Below, one piece after another: positions 15,053-38,823 of a stretch of DNA of 64,000 nt (position 1 is its first letter; each line of letters starts with the position of its first letter). The notes under the pieces were generated by a model. It was not told where the DNA came from and made no database searches. It was given only the letters and a program-made list of their open reading frames with translations. Origin of the DNA: Escherichia coli (GTDB lineage: Bacteria; Pseudomonadota; Gammaproteobacteria; Enterobacterales; Enterobacteriaceae); NCBI RefSeq assembly GCF_001677475.2, contig NZ_CP015229.1; one strand, 5' to 3'. The position numbers were made by a program, and so were the translations under genes.

Positions 15053-16054
15053 TTGCCTGCGCGTTTAAGCCAGCCTCGTATCAGGGGGCTGGTTTAGGCG
15101 TTTTGAATCAACGGGTTCCATGGTGTTGTTCATTTAATCACTGTTTTAGTATCAATTTTCAATAGTATCCTTTCATAGGACTACTCTGGATGCGTTCACC
15201 TTCATTGTCGCTCTAAGCAACTAGATCCTCAGAAATCTCCAGTTAGGTTGCATCCTTCCTTACACACTTTCCTGAAACTTCAGGGTAAGGTGAGAAAGCC
15301 GCCATCACTTTTTCTTATTCCAGCATCTAAATAAATTCCGAATTTTGCTATTAATATCGCTACCGCAATAAAAACAGATAGTAAAGAGAGTAATATATAC
15401 TTTAGTGATATGTTAAGAATAATTGATTGTTAACATATCTAATGGGATAAGATGTGTTTCTGTTAATGAAAATATTCAAGATTTATAGTTGATAATTAAA
15501 ATACACTCGATATCTCAGCCCTTTCTATGCAAGATGCAATTTTATAAGCTGTCCATTTTTTATATGGAGGCGGTAGCGTGTTTGTTACTCGTGATTTTAT
15601 TGGTATGGTGAATATGTTGGGATTGTTAAATACATAACGGCATATCAGTTCCGGTCATTGTAAATATGGGTAATTGCTTAATGTTATTAGTGATTACCGT
15701 TTGAAAGATAAAGAGTGCTGTAAAGCGGTGATAGACATTACATTCATGATTAAAAAACAGAACCTGTCAATAAATAATTCATTTATTAAAAAGGACGACT
15801 TCTATTATGACGGAATATTATCTCAATGAGACGGTTTGCAAATACAGAGCCAGTTTCTCCGGGGTAACGAGCAGGTGTACCAGTGTCAGGTGGCATTTGT
15901 ATTGCCGGGTGAGCGGGTCATGATGGCCTTCACCTACGCCCGAACCACACCGCTGACCCCGGCAGATATGACGCGCTGGGCTGAAATTAAAAAGAATCTG
16001 CGCTTCAGGATGCGGCAGGAAGCCGGGACGAATTAATCACACAGGGAACGGGAC

Positions 16055-19000
16055 ATGGAAGAGGCATTCTGGGCGGCAAGGCAGGGTGATGCCCTGCTGC
16101 ATACGTCGTTTATGGCAGATGTGCTGGGGGCAGTTGTAGAGGTTGCCGCCACAGCCCTGGTGGATGTTCTGGTTGTCGGAACCATGGCGGCGCTGGGCGG
16201 AGTTGAAGTGGCAACGCTGGGCTGCTCAACCATTTTAGCGATCGGTATAGCAACAGCGGTATTTATGTCGTATCAGGGCTGGAATGACCGAATCAGTAGG
16301 GAAAGTGAGCAACTGGCGAACTGGCTTTTCCCGCCTCAGATTGAAGGTTACATCCTCACCGGCTCTGGCGACACATGGATCAACAGCAAACCTGCCGCGC
16401 GGGCCGCGGCGACTGCGGCATCGCGGCAGGACATTGAGGCGCAGGAGGCGCAGGCGAAGGCGGAACAGGAAGAAGCGCAGCGTCAGGAGGATGCCAGAAC
16501 GTTCCTGGATGTGGCCGGGGAATATCTGGAAATGGCGGGGGCCATAGCCCTGGCGGTTAACCCGGTGACAGGGCCTGTGCTGATGTCCCGGGCGCTGCAC
16601 GACCAGCTCAGTACGGAAGAAGGGCGTTCTGAAATGGTGGATGGCGTGACACATTTTGTGTCGGAACTATGGCAGCCCACCGTGGCCAGTGCGGCCCCGG
16701 GCTCCACCCCGACCCCTGACGATAAAATCGACTGCCATAAACATCCCTCCTCACTGACGCAGTTTCTCGCACAAAAAAAAGCCGCCTTTCTGGATGACCC
16801 CCTGGGAACGGCCCTTAACCTGCTGAGTCCGGGCGGTATGCTGGAAACCGCCTTTCAGGGAGTGAATGCGGTTATTGGCAGCATCAGTAATCTGTTCAAA
16901 GGCGATGATGAACCGCCCGCAGCGGAATATATCGCGGAAGGCGCGCGGGATGTGCGTATCAACAGCCAGCCGGCGGCACGCAGCGGGGCACGCTGCACCT
17001 GCGAGGCCAGGGTGGTGAATGAGCCGGGGAACGGGGCGTTTGTGTCACCGGATGTCCGCATTGGCGGTCCGTTACTGGTGGTCAGGGATATCAGAAGCGG
17101 CAGGTCGCAGATAACCCTGGTGGCAACCGTGGCGCTGATGTTTCTTCGCCCGGGCAAAATGCTTTCTAAAATCGCCTGTTTTGCTGCCAGTGTCGGGATG
17201 GGGGTGATGACGCAGAAGGCCATCAGTGCCCTTCCGCATCCGGTCAATGCCGCCACCGGAGCCAAATATCTGGCCGATGACGATGATTTTGACTTCAGTC
17301 TGCCGGGCCACTTTCCGCTGGACTGGCAGCGCGTGTACAGCAGTCGTGACGACCGCACGGAAGGGATGTTCGGGCAGGGCTGGAGTGTAATGTATGAAGT
17401 CAGCCTCGAGCGCACGCCGGGTACTGCTGACGAAAACTGTATGACCTTTGTGTCGGGCATGGGACGACGTCTGGATATGGAGGCCGTGCTGCCGGGGAGC
17501 GGGTTTTACAGCCCCGGCGAAGGACTGGCAGTACGGCGGGGTGAGCAGGGGCACTGGCTTATCAGCAGCGATGACGGGCAGTTTTTTCTGTTTGAGGCCG
17601 ACCCGCGTCACCCGCAGCGCCAGCGGCTGAAAATGCTGGGCGACCGCAACAGCAACTGTCTGAATCTGTACTACGACGAGCTGGGGCGCATCACGCAAAT
17701 CAGCGGTGAACAGCAGCGTCCGTGCATCCGTCTGCATTATGAACTGGCGGCGCATCCCCGGCGGGTGACACAGATTTATCAGCATTTCCCTGAGATGGCT
17801 CCTTTACTGCTGCGTCGTTACCGCTATGACGAGGCCGGCGACCTGAACGGCGTGTACGACAGCACGGGGCACCTGCTGCGCGAGTTTGCTTACGACGAAA
17901 ACCACTGCATGACCCTGCACCGCCAGCCGGGCGGCGAAGGGTATTATTACCAGTGGGGCTGGTATGAAGGCCCGGATGACGCAGCGTGGCGGGTGACGGG
18001 GCACCACACGGACAGCGGTGAACAGTACCGGCTGGCGTGGAGCCTGGCGGCACGCAGGCTGTGCGTGACGGACGGGCTGGGGCGCACGCGTTATCATCAG
18101 TGGGACGCGCAAAATCAGGTGACGGCGTACCAGGACGAAGCCGGGCAGGTGACGACGTTCCGCTGGAGCGACGAAGAACGGCTGTTACTGGGAATGACCG
18201 ATGCGCAGGGCGGCAAATGGCGCTATGTGTATGACCGGCAGGGGCATATCACGGAGACGCACGACCCGCTGGGGCGGGTGGCACAGACACAGTGGCACCC
18301 GGTGTGGCACCAGCCGGAAACGGAGGTGGACGCGGCGGGGAACAGCTGGTGCTGTGAGTACGATGAACGCGGCAATCTTCTTGCGGTGACCGACCCGCTG
18401 CAGCAGAACACCCGGTATCAGTATGACCGCCACGGCCAGGTGGTGCAGATAACGGATGCGCGCGGGGGGAATAAATACCTTCAGTGGAACGAAGACGGGC
18501 AGCTCATGCGGCACACGGACTGTTCCGGCTCGCAGACGGCCTGGTTCTACGACGAACGCACGCGGCTGATACGGATGACAGACGCGCAGAGCCACAGCAC
18601 GCGCTACGGGTATGACGACAGCGGCCACCTGACGGAGGTGATACTGGCGGACGGCCGCACGGTGAATTACCAGTCGGACGCGGCGGGCAGGCTGGTGAAG
18701 TACACCAGCCCGATGGGGAGGATAACGCGCTGGCAGCGGGACGGGCAGGGCCGGGTGCGCAGCCGGACAGACGCGACGGGGCGCAGGACGGCGTTCGGGT
18801 ACGATGCCTACGGGCGTCTGGTCACGCTCACGAACGAGAACGGAGAAAGCTACCGGTTCCGCCATGACGTGCTGGACCGTCTGGCGGAGCAGATAAATCC
18901 GGACGGCTGCCGCCAGACGTACCGCTACAACGCGCTGAACGCGGTCACGGAAGTGGTGTTCACCGGGGACCGGGGCGGTGAAATCCGCCACCGGCTGGCA

Positions 19001-20737
19001 CGTGATGCGGCGGGCCGGCTCACGGCAAAGGAGACAGCCGATGGCCATACGGAATACGTCCATGATGCGGCAGACCAGCTACTGGAAATCCGCCGCCGAC
19101 GGTCGGATGCCGGGGAAACAGACGCACCGGAGATTATCCGTTTCAGTTACGACAGACTGGGGCGGATGCTGACCGAGGAGACGGCGCAGGGCGTCCTGAC
19201 CCATCAGTACGATGAACTCAGCAACCGGACAGCCACCACCTTTCCGGATGGCAGAACGCAGCGTCATCTGTACTACGGCAGCGGCCATCTCCAGCAGATA
19301 AATCTGGACCGGGAGGTCATCAGCGAGTTCACACGTGACGCCCTGCACCGGGAAGTGCTCAGAAGTCAGGGGCGACTGAGCACGCGGCAGCTTTATGACC
19401 CCGCCGGGCGGCTGAAGCGCAGGGAGACATACAGCGGGATGCGCGGGGTGGTACCGGAGACGTTCACGGACCGGCAGTACAGCTACAGCGGCGAGGATGA
19501 ATTGCTGAAGACGCGGCACAGCCGGCGGGGGGAAACGGATTACTTCTACGACCCCACGGGGCGCATCACGGCGTGCCGCTCGGAGGATGAGAGGTATCTG
19601 GCGAGCTGGCAGTACGACGCGGCGGGAAACCTGCTGGGGAGGCGCGCGGGGGAAAGGGCCACGGCAGAAAACAGCGTGGTGCCGTTCAACCGGCTGATGT
19701 CTTACCGTGGTGTGCACTACCGTTATGACGAATTTGGCCGGACGGTGGAAAAGGAGGGCCGGAGCGGCACGCAGAGTTACCGTTATGATGCGGAACACCG
19801 GATGGTGGAAGTGACGACAGCGCGGGGGACATACCGGTATGTGTACGATGCGCTGGGGAGGCGGACGGAAAAACAGCACATCAGCCCTGACGGTAAACCG
19901 TACAACCGGACGACATTTTTATGGGACGGAATGCGGCTGGCGCAGGAGAGCAGGCCGGAGGGAATAAGCAGCCTGTATATCTACAGCGACCCGGGGAGTT
20001 ATGAACCGCTGGCGCGGGTGGATAAGGCGGGCAAAGAGGGCCCGAACCGGATACTGTATTTTCACACGGATGTGAACGGTGCGCCGGAAGAGATGACGGA
20101 CAGTGACGGGAAAATCGTGTGGGAGACGGGGTATCAGGTCTGGGGTAACACGATACAGGAGAAGGACCACGGCGGGGTGGAGCAGAACCTGCGCTACCAG
20201 GGACAGTACCTCGACAGGGAAACGGGGCTGCATTACAATCTGCACAGGTACTATGATCCGGATGTCGGGCGGTTCATGGTAACGGACCCGATAGGGCTGG
20301 CGGGGGGACTGAATCTTTACCAATACTCACCGAATCCAATAAGTTGGATCGACCCGCTGGGATTAACAGGGGAGTGGGTTAATCCCAAAGATATTAATTT
20401 TTCTCAAAGAACAATATCACCTCATGATTATGCCGATATTATGCGTAATGGTGGTTGGGATTGGGACAGGTCTCCATTAAGAGTAATTGATATTGATGGG
20501 CAATTAGTTTCTTATGATAATAGGCGATTAGACGCAGCTCTAGAGGCCGGATTAGATAAGGTTAAAGTCATTAGAGTTGACCCTAATGCTCCTCATCCTG
20601 ACTCATCTACTGGAAAAACATGGTTACAAAAATTCCGAGAGAGATTTAGAGATCGAAGAAATATAAAGGCCGGTGGAATAGTACCAGATAAAGGATTAAA
20701 TTCTCGACCGGAAAGAACATCAAGAGGTTGCAAATGA
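16055..20737 (+). CDS. Rhs-family polymorphic toxin: prePAAR motif, hydrophobic segments, PAAR-like motifs, YD-repeat core, C-terminal toxin (about 20363..20734)
   Basis: 1560-aa ORF; N-terminus AARQGDALLH (AARxxDxxxH) then hydrophobic stretch, INSKPAAR and INSQPAAR motifs, second hydrophobic stretch; many YD repeats; core ends [40 protein letters not shown] followed by a 124-aa variable tail. Confidence 0.9.
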   Translation: MEEAFWAARQGDALLHTSFMADVLGAVVEVAATALVDVLVVGTMAALGGVEVATLGCSTILAIGIATAVFMSYQGWNDRISRESEQLANWLFPPQIEGYILTGSGDTWINSKPAARAAATAASRQDIEAQEAQAKAEQEEAQRQEDARTFLDVAGEYLEMAGAIALAVNPVTGPVLMSRALHDQLSTEEGRSEMVDGVTHFVSELWQPTVASAAPGSTPTPDDKIDCHKHPSSLTQFLAQKKAAFLDDPLGTALNLLSPGGMLETAFQGVNAVIGSISNLFKGDDEPPAAEYIAEGARDVRINSQPAARSGARCTCEARVVNEPGNGAFVSPDVRIGGPLLVVRDIRSGRSQITLVATVALMFLRPGKMLSKIACFAASVGMGVMTQKAISALPHPVNAATGAKYLADDDDFDFSLPGHFPLDWQRVYSSRDDRTEGMFGQGWSVMYEVSLERTPGTADENCMTFVSGMGRRLDMEAVLPGSGFYSPGEGLAVRRGEQGHWLISSDDGQFFLFEADPRHPQRQRLKMLGDRNSNCLNLYYDELGRITQISGEQQRPCIRLHYELAAHPRRVTQIYQHFPEMAPLLLRRYRYDEAGDLNGVYDSTGHLLREFAYDENHCMTLHRQPGGEGYYYQWGWYEGPDDAAWRVTGHHTDSGEQYRLAWSLAARRLCVTDGLGRTRYHQWDAQNQVTAYQDEAGQVTTFRWSDEERLLLGMTDAQGGKWRYVYDRQGHITETHDPLGRVAQTQWHPVWHQPETEVDAAGNSWCCEYDERGNLLAVTDPLQQNTRYQYDRHGQVVQITDARGGNKYLQWNEDGQLMRHTDCSGSQTAWFYDERTRLIRMTDAQSHSTRYGYDDSGHLTEVILADGRTVNYQSDAAGRLVKYTSPMGRITRWQRDGQGRVRSRTDATGRRTAFGYDAYGRLVTLTNENGESYRFRHDVLDRLAEQINPDGCRQTYRYNALNAVTEVVFTGDRGGEIRHRLARDAAGRLTAKETADGHTEYVHDAADQLLEIRRRRSDAGETDAPEIIRFSYDRLGRMLTEETAQGVLTHQYDELSNRTATTFPDGRTQRHLYYGSGHLQQINLDREVISEFTRDALHREVLRSQGRLSTRQLYDPAGRLKRRETYSGMRGVVPETFTDRQYSYSGEDELLKTRHSRRGETDYFYDPTGRITACRSEDERYLASWQYDAAGNLLGRRAGERATAENSVVPFNRLMSYRGVHYRYDEFGRTVEKEGRSGTQSYRYDAEHRMVEVTTARGTYRYVYDALGRRTEKQHISPDGKPYNRTTFLWDGMRLAQESRPEGISSLYIYSDPGSYEPLARVDKAGKEGPNRILYFHTDVNGAPEEMTDSDGKIVWETGYQVWGNTIQEKDHGGVEQNLRYQGQYLDRETGLHYNLHRYYDPDVGRFMVTDPIGLAGGLNLYQYSPNPISWIDPLGLTGEWVNPKDINFSQRTISPHDYADIMRNGGWDWDRSPLRVIDIDGQLVSYDNRRLDAALEAGLDKVKVIRVDPNAPHPDSSTGKTWLQKFRERFRDRRNIKAGGIVPDKGLNSRPERTSRGCK

Positions 20738-21168
20738 AAAATATTATTCAGTTATGGGAAGATGGTTTATTACCGATAAAAGATGCTATTTACTTTTCTA
20801 ACGGTGAATCTTTCCTTTGTAAAATAACATCTTACCCTACTCCTTGTATTGAGAAAAATGGTGAGTTTGATTTCTCTGCCTTTTATGAAAAAAATAAAGA
20901 TGAAGTTACTGATATTGATAAGTCTAGAGAAGTTAAATTAGCGAATAATTGCTATTGTTGCATTGGAGAAGGTAGTTATGGTTCTGAAGGATTTATCGCA
21001 TATCTCGATGAAAATAAAAACTTAGTTTGGGTTCTTTATTCCGAAGAATCTAATCCATTTATTAATATAACTGAATATACATCTGATATTATTATAGTAG
21101 AATCAAGTTCTAATATTAGACTAAGAATAAATATAAACAATCCAGTGGATTTAGAATTGGCATTTTAA
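20734..21168 (+). CDS. putative Rhs immunity protein for the main C-terminal toxin (144 aa)
   Basis: ATG overlaps the rhs stop (ATGA); sharp drop in GC relative to the rhs core; position immediately after the toxin; no recognisable domain. Confidence 0.7.
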   Translation: MKNIIQLWEDGLLPIKDAIYFSNGESFLCKITSYPTPCIEKNGEFDFSAFYEKNKDEVTDIDKSREVKLANNCYCCIGEGSYGSEGFIAYLDENKNLVWVLYSEESNPFINITEYTSDIIIVESSSNIRLRININNPVDLELAF

Positions 21169-21171
21169 ATA

Positions 21172-21208
21172 AAAAGCCGGGTGAAATTAAATCTTCCCGG
21201 CTTTTTTA
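21172..21208. terminator. intrinsic terminator closing cassette 1 (repeat-family hairpin)
   Basis: AAGCCGGG…CCCGGCTTTTTTATT; the same hairpin recurs after each immunity gene at about 25.8, 28.4 and 30.8 kb. Confidence 0.7.
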
Positions 21209-21212
21209 TTAT

Positions 21213-21542
21213 TTAACTCTCGTTCAGCACACTAAACATCCCGTTCCGCATCCCCTTAACCACCTGTTTAACCTGATAAAGTTCTTCCCGCAGCTCCTGC
21301 ACCTCGTCACTGTCAGCGATGATGGTCAGGTACCCCTCCGAAATCTTCACCGTGACACCCCGCCCGGTATCAAATCCCGCCTCAGCCAGCCAGTCGCCCT
21401 TGAGGTGCAGGCTGGGATGTTGTGAATAATACCGGGCTATACCTGTTGTGCGGTCCTGGTGGCGGGTTCTGACATAGCCGACTTTATAGCGGCGCTGGGT
21501 TTTGGAAATGGTGACTTCTGGCGTAATATCGTGTTCAGCCAT
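21213..21542 (-). CDS. SymE-family protein (type I toxin-like, AbrB/SpoVT fold), full length 109 aa
   Basis: …LHLKGDWLAEAGFDTGRGVTVKISEGYLTIIAD… aligns with my recollection of E. coli SymE (…[33 protein letters not shown]…); ATG start. Confidence 0.7.
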   Translation of the reverse strand: MAEHDITPEVTISKTQRRYKVGYVRTRHQDRTTGIARYYSQHPSLHLKGDWLAEAGFDTGRGVTVKISEGYLTIIADSDEVQELREELYQVKQVVKGMRNGMFSVLNES

Positions 21543-21781
21543 GATTAACTACTCCTGTTAGTTGCTTGTGGTGAGCGGCTGTTACAGGCGGCAACCTGTA
21601 GCAGTCGCGTTAAATATCAACGCATTACCTTCATTACCTGCTTCATCTTCTCCTGGGTGATCGCCATATCCAGAATACGGCAGATCACTTCCTGATCGTC
21701 TGCTTTAAGCTCATCAACCTGCTTACACAGTTCTTTTAACCGCTTGTTTTTTATATCGAAAACATCGCGGAAGAAGAAGGT

Positions 21782-31136: not shown

Positions 31137-31329
31137 GGTACAGTGGCGCTGTGTTTTGGAAATGATATTTTTGTATTTAACCTGCTGATTAGATAGTAAA
31201 ATAAACTTCGTGCAGATAGCTTACTTTATCAGGGTGTGGCGGTAGCGTATGAACTATGATGCGGTGGTTTCAGGAATGTACGTACAAAATCGATAGTACG
31301 ATCCTCCAATCAGGTAGATTTGCTGCCCT

Positions 31330-31734
31330 GATCCGATAGGGCTAAGAGGCGGGCTGAACCTGTATGCTTATGCGCCTAATCCGCTGAAATATATTGATCC
31401 ACTCGGATTAAAAAAAGAGCTCTGTAATGGAACTACTCGTGTGCGGCATTATACTAATCGTAAAGGTTCAAATGCGATTGCTGAAAGTGGGATAATTAAG
31501 GCGCATGATAACGGTCGTGTATATTTGGAACCTGCGAATAAAAAACCACTCAGTCAAGTAGACATAGAGGCGAAATATCAAATAGGTCGTGGGAAAGGTA
31601 GAGATTATGTGGATACAGATGTATCTAACGAGCAATTAGAGTGGGTAACAAACCCTCGATATCATATAGATGAATTGACTGTGAAAGGTGATATTATTCT
31701 TTCTGAAAATGCAAAAATAACTCGGCGTAAATAA
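31330..31734 (+). CDS. orphan Rhs C-terminal toxin cassette D (starts at the DPIGL core tail; no ATG, in-frame GTG at 31441)
   Basis: In-frame DPIGLRGGLNLYAYAPNPLKYIDPLGLKKELCNGTTRVRHYTNRKGSNAIAESGIIKAHDNGRVYLEP…; frame opens after a stop at about 31315. Confidence 0.65.
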   Translation, partial: DPIGLRGGLNLYAYAPNPLKYIDPLGLKKELCNGTTRVRHYTNRKGSNAIAESGIIKAHDNGRVYLEPANKKPLSQVDIEAKYQIGRGKGRDYVDTDVSNEQLEWVTNPRYHIDELTVKGDIILSENAKITRRK

Positions 31735-31735
31735 T

Positions 31736-32062
31736 ATGAATAAAAACAATGATGTAATTAATATACCCGGAAAGGATGCCCTTTATATTCTAAGTGAGGT
31801 AGAGTACATATTGATATCACTTAAGAATATTGCAAGGTATTATTTCAATGGTATAGAACAGAACGTTATTGATGATAAATTGTTGAATTCTTACTTTAAA
31901 GAAACCACTAAATTTATTGATGATAAAAATATTACACATCGATTGGCTGAAATAAGAAGGGTTATTACTGAAAATTTTAATACTGATCTTGGAGATGATG
32001 ATATGGATGATATTGAGAGAGAAATAGAAAAGATAAAATGTTGGGAGAAGCCGGGTGATTAA
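31736..32062 (+). CDS. putative immunity protein for orphan toxin D (108 aa)
   Basis: AT-rich ORF starting 2 bp after the toxin stop; acidic C-terminus. Confidence 0.65.
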   Translation: MNKNNDVINIPGKDALYILSEVEYILISLKNIARYYFNGIEQNVIDDKLLNSYFKETTKFIDDKNITHRLAEIRRVITENFNTDLGDDDMDDIEREIEKIKCWEKPGD

Positions 32063-32067
32063 TATAA

Positions 32068-32096
32068 AACGGGAAGGCATGTAGCCTTCCCGTTGA
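32068..32096. terminator. possible terminator hairpin after cassette D (weak T-run)
   Basis: CGGGAAGGCatgtaGCCTTCCCG followed by ttgag. Confidence 0.35.
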
Positions 32097-32127
32097 GCCT
32101 GTCAATCATTCTGTGTAAATGCCTTTC

Positions 32128-32583
32128 TCAGAAGTGACCGTCAAGGCAGTCCCCGAACTCGATAATAAAGCGACTCATGGCTATCCGCCAGTCCTGAAGT
32201 GGCATCGTCCATTTCTGTGAGGCTGACTGGATAGCCAGCCACACCACTTTTTTCACCGAGTCGTCTGTCGGGAACACTTTCCGTTTCTTTATCGCATGTC
32301 TGATGACGCTATTCAGCGATTCGATTGCGTTAGTGGTGTAGATAACCTTGCGGATCGCCTCCGGGTACACGAAGAAGGTGGCAACATTCGGCCAGTTTGC
32401 CCGCCAGCTGCGACTTATCTGCGGGTACCGTGCATCCCATTCCTTCCCGAACGCATCCAGCGCCTGCAACGTGCCTTCTTCCGTGGCTGCGCGGTAAACC
32501 TGTTTCAGGTCACGGGTTACCGCTTTATAGTCTTTCCACGCCACGAACCGCAGGCTGTTGCGTACCATGTGTACTATGCACAA
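32128..32583 (-). pseudogene. IS256-family (mutator-type) transposase, C-terminal fragment
   Basis: 151-aa ORF …VYPEAIRKVIYTTNAIESLNSVIRHAIKKRKVFPTDDSVKKVVWLAIQSASQKWTMPLQDWRIAMSRFIIEFGDCL; far shorter than an intact transposase; abuts H-repeat copy 2. Confidence 0.7.
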
Positions 32584-32597
32584 CTGGATCTGCGTCT

Positions 32598-33576
32598 CAG
32601 GGAAAGATCACGTAACGCTACTTTTTTGTACTAAATAATTGGCATTTTATGTTTAAAAATTGAGATATTCCTCATTACCTAAAGCTGTTTTTTTATTGCT
32701 TATACATGATCAAGTACTCCTTACATAATTAAGGAGAACAAAATGGAACTTAAAAAATTGATGGAACATATTTCTATTATTCCCGATTACAGACAAGCCT
32801 GGAAAGTGGAGCATAAATTGTCAGATATTCTACTGTTGACTATTTGTGCCGTTATTTCTGGTGCAGAAGGTTGGGAAGGTATAGAGGATTTTGGGGAAAC
32901 ACATCTCGATTTTTTGAAGCAATATGGTGATTTTGAAAATGGTATTCCTGTTCACGATACTATTGCCAGAGTTGTATCCTGTATCAGTCCTGCAAAATTT
33001 CATGAGTGCTTTATTAACTGGATGCAAGATTGCCATACTTCAGATGATAAAGACGTCATCGCAATTGATGGAAAAACACTTCGGCATTCTTATGACAAGC
33101 GTCGCCGCAAGGGAGCGATTCATGTCATTAGTGCGTTCTCAACAATGCACAGTCTGGTCATCGGACAGCTCAAGACGGATGAGAAATCTAATGAGATTAC
33201 AGCTATCCCTGAACTTCTTAACATGTTGGATATTAAAGGAAAAATTATCACAACTGATGCGATGGGTTGCCAGAAAGATATCGCAGAGAAGATACAAAAA
33301 CAGGGCGGTGATTATTTATTCGCTGTAAAAGGAAATCAGGGGCGGCTTAATAAAGCCTTTGAGGAAAAATTTCCACTGAAAGAATTAAATAATCCAGAGC
33401 ATGACAGTTACGCAATGAGTGAAAAGAGTCACGGCAGAGAAGAAATCCGTCTTCATATTGTTTGCGATGTCCCTGATGAACTTATTGATTTTACGTTTGA
33501 ATCGAAAGGGCAGCTATGGACAGAAACTACCTGACGTCAGTCCTTGCGGGGAGCGGGCTTTCGTAATCTTGCCCTG
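32598..33576 (+). mobile_element. H-repeat (ISAs1-family) element, copy 2, internally deleted (about 0.3 kb missing), no target duplication
   Basis: Same termini as copy 1 (CAGGGAAAGATCACG…CGTAATCTTGCCCTG); transposase ORF jumps from …FTFE to the element's final about 15 codons; flanks differ. Confidence 0.7.
32743..33534 (+). pseudogene. ybfD: H-repeat-associated transposase, truncated (263 aa; YbfD-like)
   Basis: N-terminal 250 aa about 95% identical to the copy at 26521; C-terminus replaced by [10 protein letters not shown] through the internal deletion; sits next to ybgA as ybfD does in K-12. Confidence 0.6.
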
Positions 33577-33651
33577 CTACAACAGGATTAACTTCACAAA
33601 CATCATTTACCAACGTCTACACTTACTCCTGTTAATATCTCAGGAGCAGTA

Positions 33652-34161
33652 ATGAATCAGCAACGATTTGATGACAGCACCCTAATCCGTATCTTCGCCC
33701 TTCATGAGTTACATCGACTGAAAGAACATGGCTTAACGCGCGGGGCGCTTCTCGATTATCACAGCCGCTATAAACTCGTCTTTCTGGCTCATTCCCAGCC
33801 GGAATACCGCAAACTTGGCCCGTTTGTGGCTGATATTCATCGGTGGCAAAGTCTGGATGACTATTACAACCAGTACCGCCAACGCGTAATTGTTTTGCTT
33901 TCTCACCCCGCCAACACGCGCGATCACACTAACGTTTTGATGCACGTTCAGGGATATTTTCGCCCACATATTGATTCCACAGAACGCCAGCAGCTGGCGG
34001 CGCTTATCGACAGTTATCGCGGTGGCGAGCAACCGCTTCTTGCGCCGCTGATGCGTATCAAACACTATATGGCGCTTTATCCTGACGCCTGGCTTTCAGG
34101 GCAGCGTTATTTCGAACTTTGGCCGCGTGTGATTAACTTGCGCCATTCAGGAGTTTTATGA
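33652..34161 (+). CDS. ybgA: YbgA (DUF1722 protein, 169 aa)
   Basis: ORF MNQQRFDDSTLIRIFALHELHRLKEHGLTRGALLDYHSRYKLVFLAHSQPEYRKLG…; overlaps phr start. Confidence 0.9.
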   Translation: MNQQRFDDSTLIRIFALHELHRLKEHGLTRGALLDYHSRYKLVFLAHSQPEYRKLGPFVADIHRWQSLDDYYNQYRQRVIVLLSHPANTRDHTNVLMHVQGYFRPHIDSTERQQLAALIDSYRGGEQPLLAPLMRIKHYMALYPDAWLSGQRYFELWPRVINLRHSGVL

Positions 34162-35576
34162 CTACCCATCTGGTCTGGTTTCGCCAGGATTTACGTCAGC
34201 ACGATAATCTCGCGCTGGCTGCCGCCTGCCGCAATTCGTCTGCGCGCGTGCTGGCGTTGTATATCGCTACCCCACGCCAGTGGGCGGCGCATAATGTGTC
34301 GCCGCGTCAGGCTGAACTTATCAATACACAACTTAATGCGCTGCAAAACGCGCTGGCGGAAAAAGGTATTCCTTTATTGTTCCGTGAAGTGGATGACTTT
34401 GTCGCCAGCGTCGAAATAGTTAAACAGGTGTGCGCGGAAAACCGCGTTACTCATCTTTTTTATAACTATCAGTATGAGGTGAATGAGCGGGCGCGGGATG
34501 TGGAAGTTGAAAGAGCGCTGCGTAACGTGGTGTGTGAAGGATTTGATGACAGCGTGATCCTGCCGCCGGGGGCGGTGATGACTGGCAATCATGAGATGTA
34601 CAAAGTCTTTACGCCATTTAAAAACGCCTGGCTGAAACGGCTGCGGGAAGGGATGCCGGAGTGCGTCGCTGCGCCAAAAGTACGTAGTAGTGGATCGATA
34701 GATCCCGCGCCATCCATTACGCTGAATTACCCTCGTCAGTCTTTCGATACTGCGCATTTCCCGGTGGAAGAAAAAGCGGCGATTGCGCAATTACGCCAGT
34801 TTTGCCAGAACGGTGCCGGAGAGTACGAGCAACAGCGAGATTTCCCTGCGGTAGAAGGCACCAGCCGTTTGTCCGCCAGCCTGGCAACGGGCGGGTTATC
34901 GCCTCGCCAGTGTCTGCATCGCCTGTTGGCGGAACAGCCGCAGGCGCTGGACGGTGGGGCCGGTAGTATCTGGCTTAATGAGCTGATCTGGCGCGAGTTT
35001 TACCGTCATCTGATAACGTATTACCCCTCGCTGTGTAAACATCGTCCGTTTATTGTCTGGACCGACCGCGTGCAGTGGCAGAGCAATTCCACGCATTTAA
35101 AGGCCTGGCAGGAAGGCAAAACGGGATACCCGATTGTTGATGCTGCCATGCGTCAGCTTAACAGCACTGGCTGGATGCATAACCGGCTACGGATGATTAC
35201 AGCCAGTTTTTTGGTGAAAGATTTATTGATCGACTGGCGCGAAGGTGAGCGATATTTCATGTCGCAGCTGATTGATGGTGATTTGGCAGCCAATAACGGT
35301 GGCTGGCAGTGGGCCGCTTCAACCGGAACCGATGCAGCGCCGTATTTTCGTATTTTTAATCCGACAACCCAGGGCGAGAAATTTGACTGCGAAGGCGAGT
35401 TTATCCGCCGGTGGCTACCAGAGTTGCGCGATGTACCAGGGAAAGCGGTGCATGAGCCGTGGAATTGGGCAGATAAATCAGGTGTGACGCTGGATTATCC
35501 GCAACCGATAGTCGATCACAAAGAAGCGAGAGTACGAACGTTGGCAGCGTATGAGGCGGCGAGGAAGGGGAAATAA
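34158..35576 (+). CDS. phr: deoxyribodipyrimidine photolyase (472 aa)
   Basis: ORF MTTHLVWFRQDLRQHDNLALAAACRNSSARVLALYIATPRQW…; photolyase/cryptochrome FAD-binding region WREFYRHL. Confidence 0.93.
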   Translation: MTTHLVWFRQDLRQHDNLALAAACRNSSARVLALYIATPRQWAAHNVSPRQAELINTQLNALQNALAEKGIPLLFREVDDFVASVEIVKQVCAENRVTHLFYNYQYEVNERARDVEVERALRNVVCEGFDDSVILPPGAVMTGNHEMYKVFTPFKNAWLKRLREGMPECVAAPKVRSSGSIDPAPSITLNYPRQSFDTAHFPVEEKAAIAQLRQFCQNGAGEYEQQRDFPAVEGTSRLSASLATGGLSPRQCLHRLLAEQPQALDGGAGSIWLNELIWREFYRHLITYYPSLCKHRPFIVWTDRVQWQSNSTHLKAWQEGKTGYPIVDAAMRQLNSTGWMHNRLRMITASFLVKDLLIDWREGERYFMSQLIDGDLAANNGGWQWAASTGTDAAPYFRIFNPTTQGEKFDCEGEFIRRWLPELRDVPGKAVHEPWNWADKSGVTLDYPQPIVDHKEARVRTLAAYEAARKGK

Positions 35577-35671
35577 CAGACGCGTCAGGCAATCTTGCCC
35601 GGATGCCGGATACTGCGTGATGAACTGCACCCCAAATGTTGGACATAATCTGACATCTGAAGGTGCAGTTT

Positions 35672-36189
35672 ATGAAACATTCATTTGAAGTAAAACTTGC
35701 CGCTGTAAATCATTACCTGGCTGGTCATGCAGGCATCATTTCTACGGCAAAACTCTTTCAACTTTCTCACACCAGCCTCTCACACTGGATTAATCTTTTT
35801 CTTCTTCACGGTCCTCGGGCACTGGATTGCAGACACAAGCGTAGCTATTCTCCTGAAGATAAACTTTGCGTGGTTCTTTATGCTCTCGGGCATTCTGAGT
35901 CTCTACCCCGGGTAGCTGCCCGGTTTAACATTCCCAGCCACAACACGGTTAAAAACTGGATAAAAGGCTACCGCAAATCTGGTAATGAGGCCTTTATCAG
36001 GCGCAGGAAGGAGAAAAGCATGACCCGTTCTGATGATACCCATGAAAACGAGGCAAACATGACGCCGGAAGAGATGAAGAATGAGCTGCGTTATCTTCGC
36101 GCAGAAAATGCATATCTGAAAGCCATGCAGGAGCATCTCCTGGAAAAAAAGCGCCAGGAGCTGGAGAAAAAACGAAAGTCATCCGGAGC

Positions 36190-36193
<4 letters not shown>
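35672..36193 (+). CDS. insJ: IS150 OrfA (InsJ, 173 aa)
   Basis: MKHSFEVKLAAVNHYLAGHAGIISTAKLFQLSHTSLSHWINLFLLHG…; helix-turn-helix plus leucine zipper typical of IS3 OrfA. Confidence 0.85.
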
Positions 36194-37052
<859 letters not shown>

Positions 37053-37158
37053 GAACGCCTTCTCCGGCTTGGCAAATAGTGCAAATTCAATATATTGCAG
37101 GGACATCCAGGCCTGATAAGACGCATTAAGCGTCGCATCAGGCATCGGTGCTGGCCTG

Positions 37159-38823
<1,665 letters not shown>

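Follow-up and report, generated by a model that had tools for sequence, protein, structure and literature searches.

What does a shortened H-repeat without a target duplication, lying against a piece of an unrelated transposase gene directly before ybgA, tell us about the history of an RhsC-type accessory island in Escherichia coli? We addressed this question within a 64,000-nucleotide stretch of contig NZ_CP015229.1 (assembly GCF_001677475.2), hereafter called the window. A preliminary description of the locus, made from the letters of the DNA, had seen here nested IS debris at the right boundary of the island, and with it a sign of repeated IS activity and decay.

The window holds two H-repeat copies, the first of which (26377–27667, plus strand) is an intact ISEc1 of 1291 bp with a 378-aa ORF, as delimited by self-BLAST, HMM matches and its empty site. 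Its transposase spans the ISAs1 model NF033564 end to end (positions 1–314 of 314; 415.8 bits at a cutoff of 70) and matches positions 3–200 of 200 of Pfam DDE_Tnp_1. A perfect 10-bp target duplication, GGGGAAATCC, flanks the element at 26367–26376 and 27668–27677. Together with its duplications, copy 1 takes up 26367–27677 and splits the coding region of an orphan Rhs C-terminal toxin. The corresponding empty site, in which the flanks are joined with one GGGGAAATCC, is contiguous in 45 E. coli genomes, where it lies within the part of an Rhs protein that forms the C-terminal toxin. Taken together, copy 1, its duplication and the verified empty site amount to direct sequence evidence that ISEc1 transposes; a genome paper of 2011 described H-repeat transposition activity as not observed (PMC3032704).

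The second H-repeat, an ISEc1 derivative of the ISAs1 family, occupies 32598–33576 on the plus strand according to self-BLAST, HMM matches and terminal repeats, and runs from CAGGGAAAG at 32598 to CTTGCCCTG at 33576. The preliminary description had staked its account on this copy not being full-length, and it measures indeed 979 bp as compared to the 1291 bp of copy 1. In the self-BLAST alignment of the two copies, 32595–33509 aligns to 26374–27287 (95.5%) and 33510–33576 to 27601–27667 (94%), while 313 bp of copy 1, corresponding to H-repeat positions 912–1224, find no match in copy 2; the internal deletion had been put at about 0.3 kb. Comparison of the copies with each other and with K-12 places the deletion junction at 33509..33510 (plus strand), where H-repeat position 911 is joined to position 1225. 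The junction is bordered by the imperfect short repeats GAAAGGGC and GAAAAGC, as is usually seen after slippage or illegitimate recombination. Both ends of the element are intact, the left terminal repeat CAGGGAAAGATCACG and the right terminal repeat CAGGGCAAGATTACG matching at 13 of 15 positions and occurring in both copies. The two 10-bp flanks, ATCTGCGTCT on the left and CTACAACAGG on the right, are dissimilar, so the absence of a target duplication, noted beforehand, holds as well.

The consequences of the deletion for the encoded protein are readily seen. The ORF list and its translation give a truncated YbfD-like transposase ORF (32743..33534, plus strand) with a complete DDE_Tnp_1_assoc domain; since 313 cannot be divided by three, the reading frame changes at the junction and the ORF stops after 263 codons. 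Copy 2 thereby covers positions 1–221 of 314 of the ISAs1 transposase HMM NF033564 (294.9 bits, cutoff 70) and positions 3–139 of 200 of Pfam DDE_Tnp_1, and its ORF has lost the C-terminal portion of the transposase core with a 10-residue stretch in it. In the ISfinder description of the ISAs1 family, target duplications measure 8–10 bp. Both copies match the transposase model of the family and carry imperfect terminal inverted repeats starting with CAGGG. The full family length of about 1.2–1.5 kb together with a complete DDE transposase is found in copy 1 and not in copy 2, and copy 2 likewise has no direct duplication of 8–10 bp. ISEc1, i.e. the H-repeat, is thus matched by the transposase family, the CAGGG termini, the 1291-bp length and, in copy 1, a 10-bp target duplication, whereas copy 2 is a 979-bp deletion form with an incomplete transposase core and no such duplication. 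With 979 bp and an incomplete DDE domain, copy 2 is therefore a defective derivative and not an autonomous member of the ISAs1 family.

The element on the left side of copy 2 is an IS1414-like remnant of the IS256 family (32095..32597, minus strand), recognised by Pfam and NCBIfam matches and by DNA homology to other copies. Its ORF (32128–32583, minus strand) matches positions 253–377 of 379 of the Mutator-type transposase family PF00872 (Transposase_mut; E=1.4e-31) and positions 214–336 of 338 of the NCBIfam IS256 model NF033543; the score of 132.7 bits for the latter lies under the cutoff of 150 bits because the sequence is a fragment. These matches agree with the original reading as a C-terminal transposase fragment on the minus strand, and the remnant as a whole proved slightly larger than reported. 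Homology to IS1414 and to other IS256-like copies begins at 32095, 33 bp to the left of the earlier start, and position 32095 is thus the outer end of the IS256-like element. What is retained is this outer terminus and the last ~156 transposase codons, while the N-terminal ~60% of the transposase and the inner end are missing, their place being taken from 32598 onwards by the H-repeat; accordingly, the pair of terminal inverted repeats and the target duplication of a complete IS256-family element are not present. Compared to IS1414, the remnant shows about 81% nucleotide identity over about 495 bp, outer end included. It belongs to the same transposase family and represents a distinct element, of which the C-terminal third is left. 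We searched for an intact copy of this element, and the closest relatives seen (96–97% identical, on plasmids) are all truncated pseudogenes. On the inner side its homology ends at 32597, exactly against the H-repeat terminus at 32598, so that the two elements do abut as described.

Outside the IS256-like terminus and directly abutting it lies a GC-rich hairpin with an 11-bp stem (32068–32094), placed between the stop codon of the preceding immunity gene and the IS end and terminator-like on the minus strand. It was the sole feature in a promoter and terminator scan of 31900–33800, which gave nothing above shuffled expectation. Further to the left follow a 108-aa putative immunity gene (31736–32062) and an orphan Tox-ART-HYD1 toxin tip (31441–31734). 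A SymE-like type I toxin ORF (30903–31136, minus strand; Pfam SymE_toxin, E=8.8e-10) is found inside the orphan toxin array, and an Rfam scan of 25000–38000 returned no families and no SymR-like RNA.

On the right, copy 2 ends 75 bp upstream of the start codon of ybgA (33652..34161, plus strand), the first backbone gene beyond the island, which is matched over its full length by NCBIfam PRK10167 (346.7 bits) in agreement with the annotations of matching E. coli genomes. That the locus marks the right boundary of the island could be settled with genomes in which the site is empty. In Ecol_276 and E105, ybfA is followed by 100 bp and then by ybgA with nothing between them, and the island stands in place of a 57-bp spacer with a terminator-like hairpin present in these genomes. 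In about 27% of genomes, a figure based on an evenly spaced genome sample from which Ecol_276 and E105 were inspected, the alignment with the window does not begin before 33614. The right boundary thus falls at 33613|33614, and the alignment with the empty sites assigns the 37 bp that follow the H-repeat (33577..33613, plus strand) to the island as its last specific sequence. The RhsC-type accessory island between ybfA and ybgA accordingly extends from 15058 to 33613 (~18.6 kb), both boundaries now being fixed to the base by the empty-site genomes.

Some observations concern the backbone beyond this point. The flank of the island (33614–35569) is unusually polymorphic: ybgA and phrB show 95.4% and 93.8% identity to strain E5, and their best match among 5426 E. 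coli genomes reaches about 97%. For sucA in the same window, the best E. coli match shows 99.1% identity. Between phrB and dtpD, at 35570–37110, the window is about 1.5 kb longer than E5 owing to an insertion, which sits in REP-like sequence, starts 7 bp before the phrB stop codon and carries IS3-family orfA/orfB genes (35663–36193 and 36298–37020).

Is the 0.3-kb deletion a product of decay in this genome? The K-12 locus, with which a comparison had been proposed from the outset, answers in the negative. It consists of three tandem H-repeats, namely ybfQ, which comprises the 5' 380 bp of an H-repeat, ybfL, a full-length H-repeat with a stop at codon 18, and ybfD, which starts at H-repeat position ~21–25. 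K-12 ybfD (b0706), the last of the three tandem H-repeats of RhsC and named H-rptC3 by Hill and co-workers, is about 94–95% identical to copy 2 and has the same endpoints of the 313-bp deletion, the same right terminus and right flank, and the same position and orientation upstream of ybgA. The two differ on the left, where the first ~20–24 bp of ybfD are missing and the gene is fused to the right end of ybfL, whereas in the window the left terminus is complete and borders on the IS256 remnant; moreover, the K-12 ORF stops at codon 254 (253 aa), whereas that of the window runs to 263 aa. From the identical deletion, right terminus and right flank it follows that copy 2 is an orthologue of K-12 ybfD at least on its right side, the left junction not being shared. 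The proposed comparison thus holds for copy 2 and ybfD. It does not extend to ybfQ as a counterpart of the IS256 fragment, which we rejected since ybfQ is the 5' 380 bp of another H-repeat; a likely annotation confusion with the IS256 remnant is thereby corrected.

The same deletion is widespread. A 60-bp probe centred on the deletion junction, used with a threshold that excludes half-matches, detected the junction in 3094 of 5426 complete E. coli genomes (57%) at 3096 places, all of them annotated as ybfD, and K-12, E5 and strain 104 carry the same deletion endpoints and right flank. Since it occurs in so many genomes at one locus, the deletion is old and has been inherited at a single place. 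The deleted copy has never been amplified despite having both ends intact, and the loss of the 313 bp is not decay local to this genome. Of the repeated IS activity and decay first proposed, the activity stands, as several independent IS events are visible, whereas the 0.3-kb deletion is shared with K-12 ybfD and hence not specific to the genome studied here. A different situation is met in O157:H7 NE1127, where the H-repeat next to ybgA (6160–7450 of the extracted locus) is full-length and undeleted. It contains an internal stop codon, its left terminus is a variant one, and on the right it is flanked by 81 bp of different sequence; from about 33595 on, O157:H7 is again homologous to the window. 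Being undeleted and differently flanked, this H-repeat is not a ybfD relic.

If the deletion is old, the complete left end, the IS256 remnant beside it and the unlike flanks of copy 2 need an explanation of their own, and strains E5 and 104 provide a likely one. In strain 104 the neighbour of the IS256 remnant is an H-repeat of full length that carries a frameshift (copy A) and lies 5.6 kb upstream of ybfD; the DNA between copy A and ybfD holds additional Rhs fragments as well as a further ISEc1 and orphan toxin/immunity pairs. In E5 (NZ_CP104521.1) the remnant directly abuts the deleted copy, as it does in the window. Here, the E5 copy shows 0 differences to the upstream copy A of strain 104 over positions 1–600, and 0 differences to strain 104 ybfD over positions 601–911 and 1225–1291. 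The E5 copy is thus an exact left/right chimera, i.e. the crossover product, of the two strain 104 copies. An independent instance of the same process is observed in O111:H8 99.1145 and E15, whose single ybfD copies carry markers of K-12 ybfL (C2) on the left side (Q18*, D28G, C35F, G43S and D101N) and markers of K-12 ybfD (C3) on the right side (E219K and I235T), and which are therefore ybfL/ybfD chimeras. Among the genomes inspected, the right flank of ybfD is constant and its left neighbour varies, being the IS256 remnant, ybfL, ybfQ, ybfC or an Rhs fragment.

The window shares with E5 the order of orphan ART-HYD1 toxin tip, immunity gene, IS256 remnant, deleted H-repeat, ybgA and phrB, and is colinear with it over 31330–35569 (4.2 kb; 94–98% identity by segment). 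Differences concern ybfD, which is frameshifted near codon 200 in E5 whereas the window ORF is open up to the deletion, and the toxin tip, which forms the expressed C-terminus of the main Rhs protein in E5 and is an orphan in the window. Since the window has the E5 arrangement, homologous recombination between H-repeat copies offers the best explanation for the lack of a target duplication in copy 2. We suggest the following course of events. An old H-repeat next to ybgA lost 313 bp by deletion between short imperfect repeats and has since been inherited vertically at this place as ybfD. In E5, and probably in the window as well, an upstream H-repeat that abutted the IS256 remnant then underwent ordinary homologous recombination with the ybfD relic. 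Such a crossover removes the intervening DNA, in strain 104 a 5.6-kb array of orphan toxin modules, and leaves a single hybrid copy that has kept its left end, carries the ybfD deletion and lies between flanks that do not match. A crossover point in copy 2 itself was sought and none could be mapped, the window copy being about 4% diverged from every comparison copy to about the same extent. It probably arose by the same crossover as the E5 copy, or the arrangement may simply be inherited. Overall, we assign a probability of about 85% to the explanation that the locus consists of two dead IS remnants, one of them the old ybfD relic, brought into their present form by H-repeat recombination.

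Other routes to this arrangement have to be weighed. Copy 2 might have transposed into the site in an already deleted, non-autonomous form, mobilised in trans, with its target duplication since eroded; both of its terminal repeats are intact, and the intact ISEc1 5 kb away is a possible source of transposase. Against this route, which we consider hardly credible, stand the two 10-bp flanks, which bear no similarity to each other, the right flank, whose position is the same in K-12, E5 and strain 104, in contrast to a left flank that varies from genome to genome, and the restriction of the deleted form to one locus (3096 places in 3094 genomes). Recombination between an upstream H-repeat and the ybfD relic is thus retained for the missing duplication. 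The origin of the IS256|H-repeat junction itself is a separate matter. With 72 genomes, E5 included, this junction is rarer than the deletion junction. An uninterrupted IS256-like relative continues with CTGCGTCTCCGGGGAGACGG, whereas the window continues with CTGCGTCT|CAGGGAAAGATC, where CAGGGAAAGATC is the exact left terminus of the H-repeat. As the break falls exactly at this terminus, it was made by an end-specific reaction of the H-repeat. This could have been an insertion of the H-repeat into the IS256-like element, the other half of which would later have been lost, or an adjacent deletion proceeding from the H-repeat end. An insertion should have generated a reciprocal junction, in which the right end CTTGCCCTG of the H-repeat is followed by AGCTGCGTCTCCGGGGAGACGG; in the 5426 genomes, the combination of the H-repeat right end with AGCTGCGTCT and the rest of the IS256-like element was found 0 times. 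The term nested, as applied to this debris, is hence unproven, although IS debris it is. In an H-repeat-mediated adjacent deletion, i.e. an intramolecular transposition, the two elements would never truly have been nested, and both the position of the junction, exactly at the H-repeat terminus against interior IS256 sequence, and the lack of a reciprocal junction in 5426 genomes would be accounted for. Both facts, however, fit equally well with an insertion whose other half was lost via H-repeat recombination, a process documented at this locus. Insertion and adjacent deletion are therefore equally possible as far as the data go, and we rate the adjacent deletion at somewhat below even odds.

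A further question is whether the relic, present in more than half of the genomes, serves as a gene. YbfD could be a domesticated, truncated transposase that has kept its N-terminal DNA-binding domain and is of use to the host or to the element family, for example as an inhibitor of H-repeat transposition; its retention beside ybgA would thereby be accounted for. In line with this, neither the window ORF (263 aa) nor that of the K-12 allele (253 aa) is interrupted ahead of the deletion, the DDE_Tnp_1_assoc domain is retained in full, the locus is found in 57% of genomes, and the pairwise dN/dS among deleted copies is 0.15. On its face such a low value suggests constraint, but gene conversion from active copies can give the same value. 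Since the copies are demonstrably mosaic with active elements, dN/dS is uninformative here; we therefore rejected it as a sign of constraint and used counts of private substitutions instead. Hereof, the ratio of synonymous to nonsynonymous changes is 2:5 for the window copy and 6:9 for K-12 ybfD (C3), as compared to 3:1 and 2:1 for two intact H-repeat copies. Moreover, a stop breaks the ORF in 7/2, O111:H8 and E15, while E5 has a frameshift in it and MB51 an IS1A insertion; in strain 104, ybfD is flagged by PGAP for a frameshift and an internal stop, and about 27% of genomes do without the whole island. Domestication thus appears improbable, and a shade less probable still is the more specific notion that truncated YbfD has been kept to bind H-repeat ends, damping ISEc1 transposition or recombination in Rhs arrays. 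If true, this would make YbfD a naturally occurring inhibitor of transposition with a single fixed locus. Given the missing C-terminal core and the independent disruption of the ORF in many strains, we conclude instead that ybfD is a pseudogene.

In conclusion, the feature is real and had been described correctly and interpreted correctly in outline, but it is ordinary and belongs to known biology. K-12 annotations have included the ybfD relic for decades, and dozens of genomes already list the arrangement with the IS256 remnant as pseudogenes. On its own the locus matters little; what we add to the preliminary description is the recombination explanation for the missing duplication, the exact boundaries of the island and the population figures. 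As genes the two elements do nothing for the cell, and their consequence is structural. Hereby, H-repeat copies serve as movable stretches of homology through which the orphan toxin/immunity array is reshuffled and pruned, with the ybfD copy as its fixed right anchor, and the locus provides a documented case in which Rhs orphan-toxin arrays are remodelled by H-repeat recombination rather than by transposition itself.
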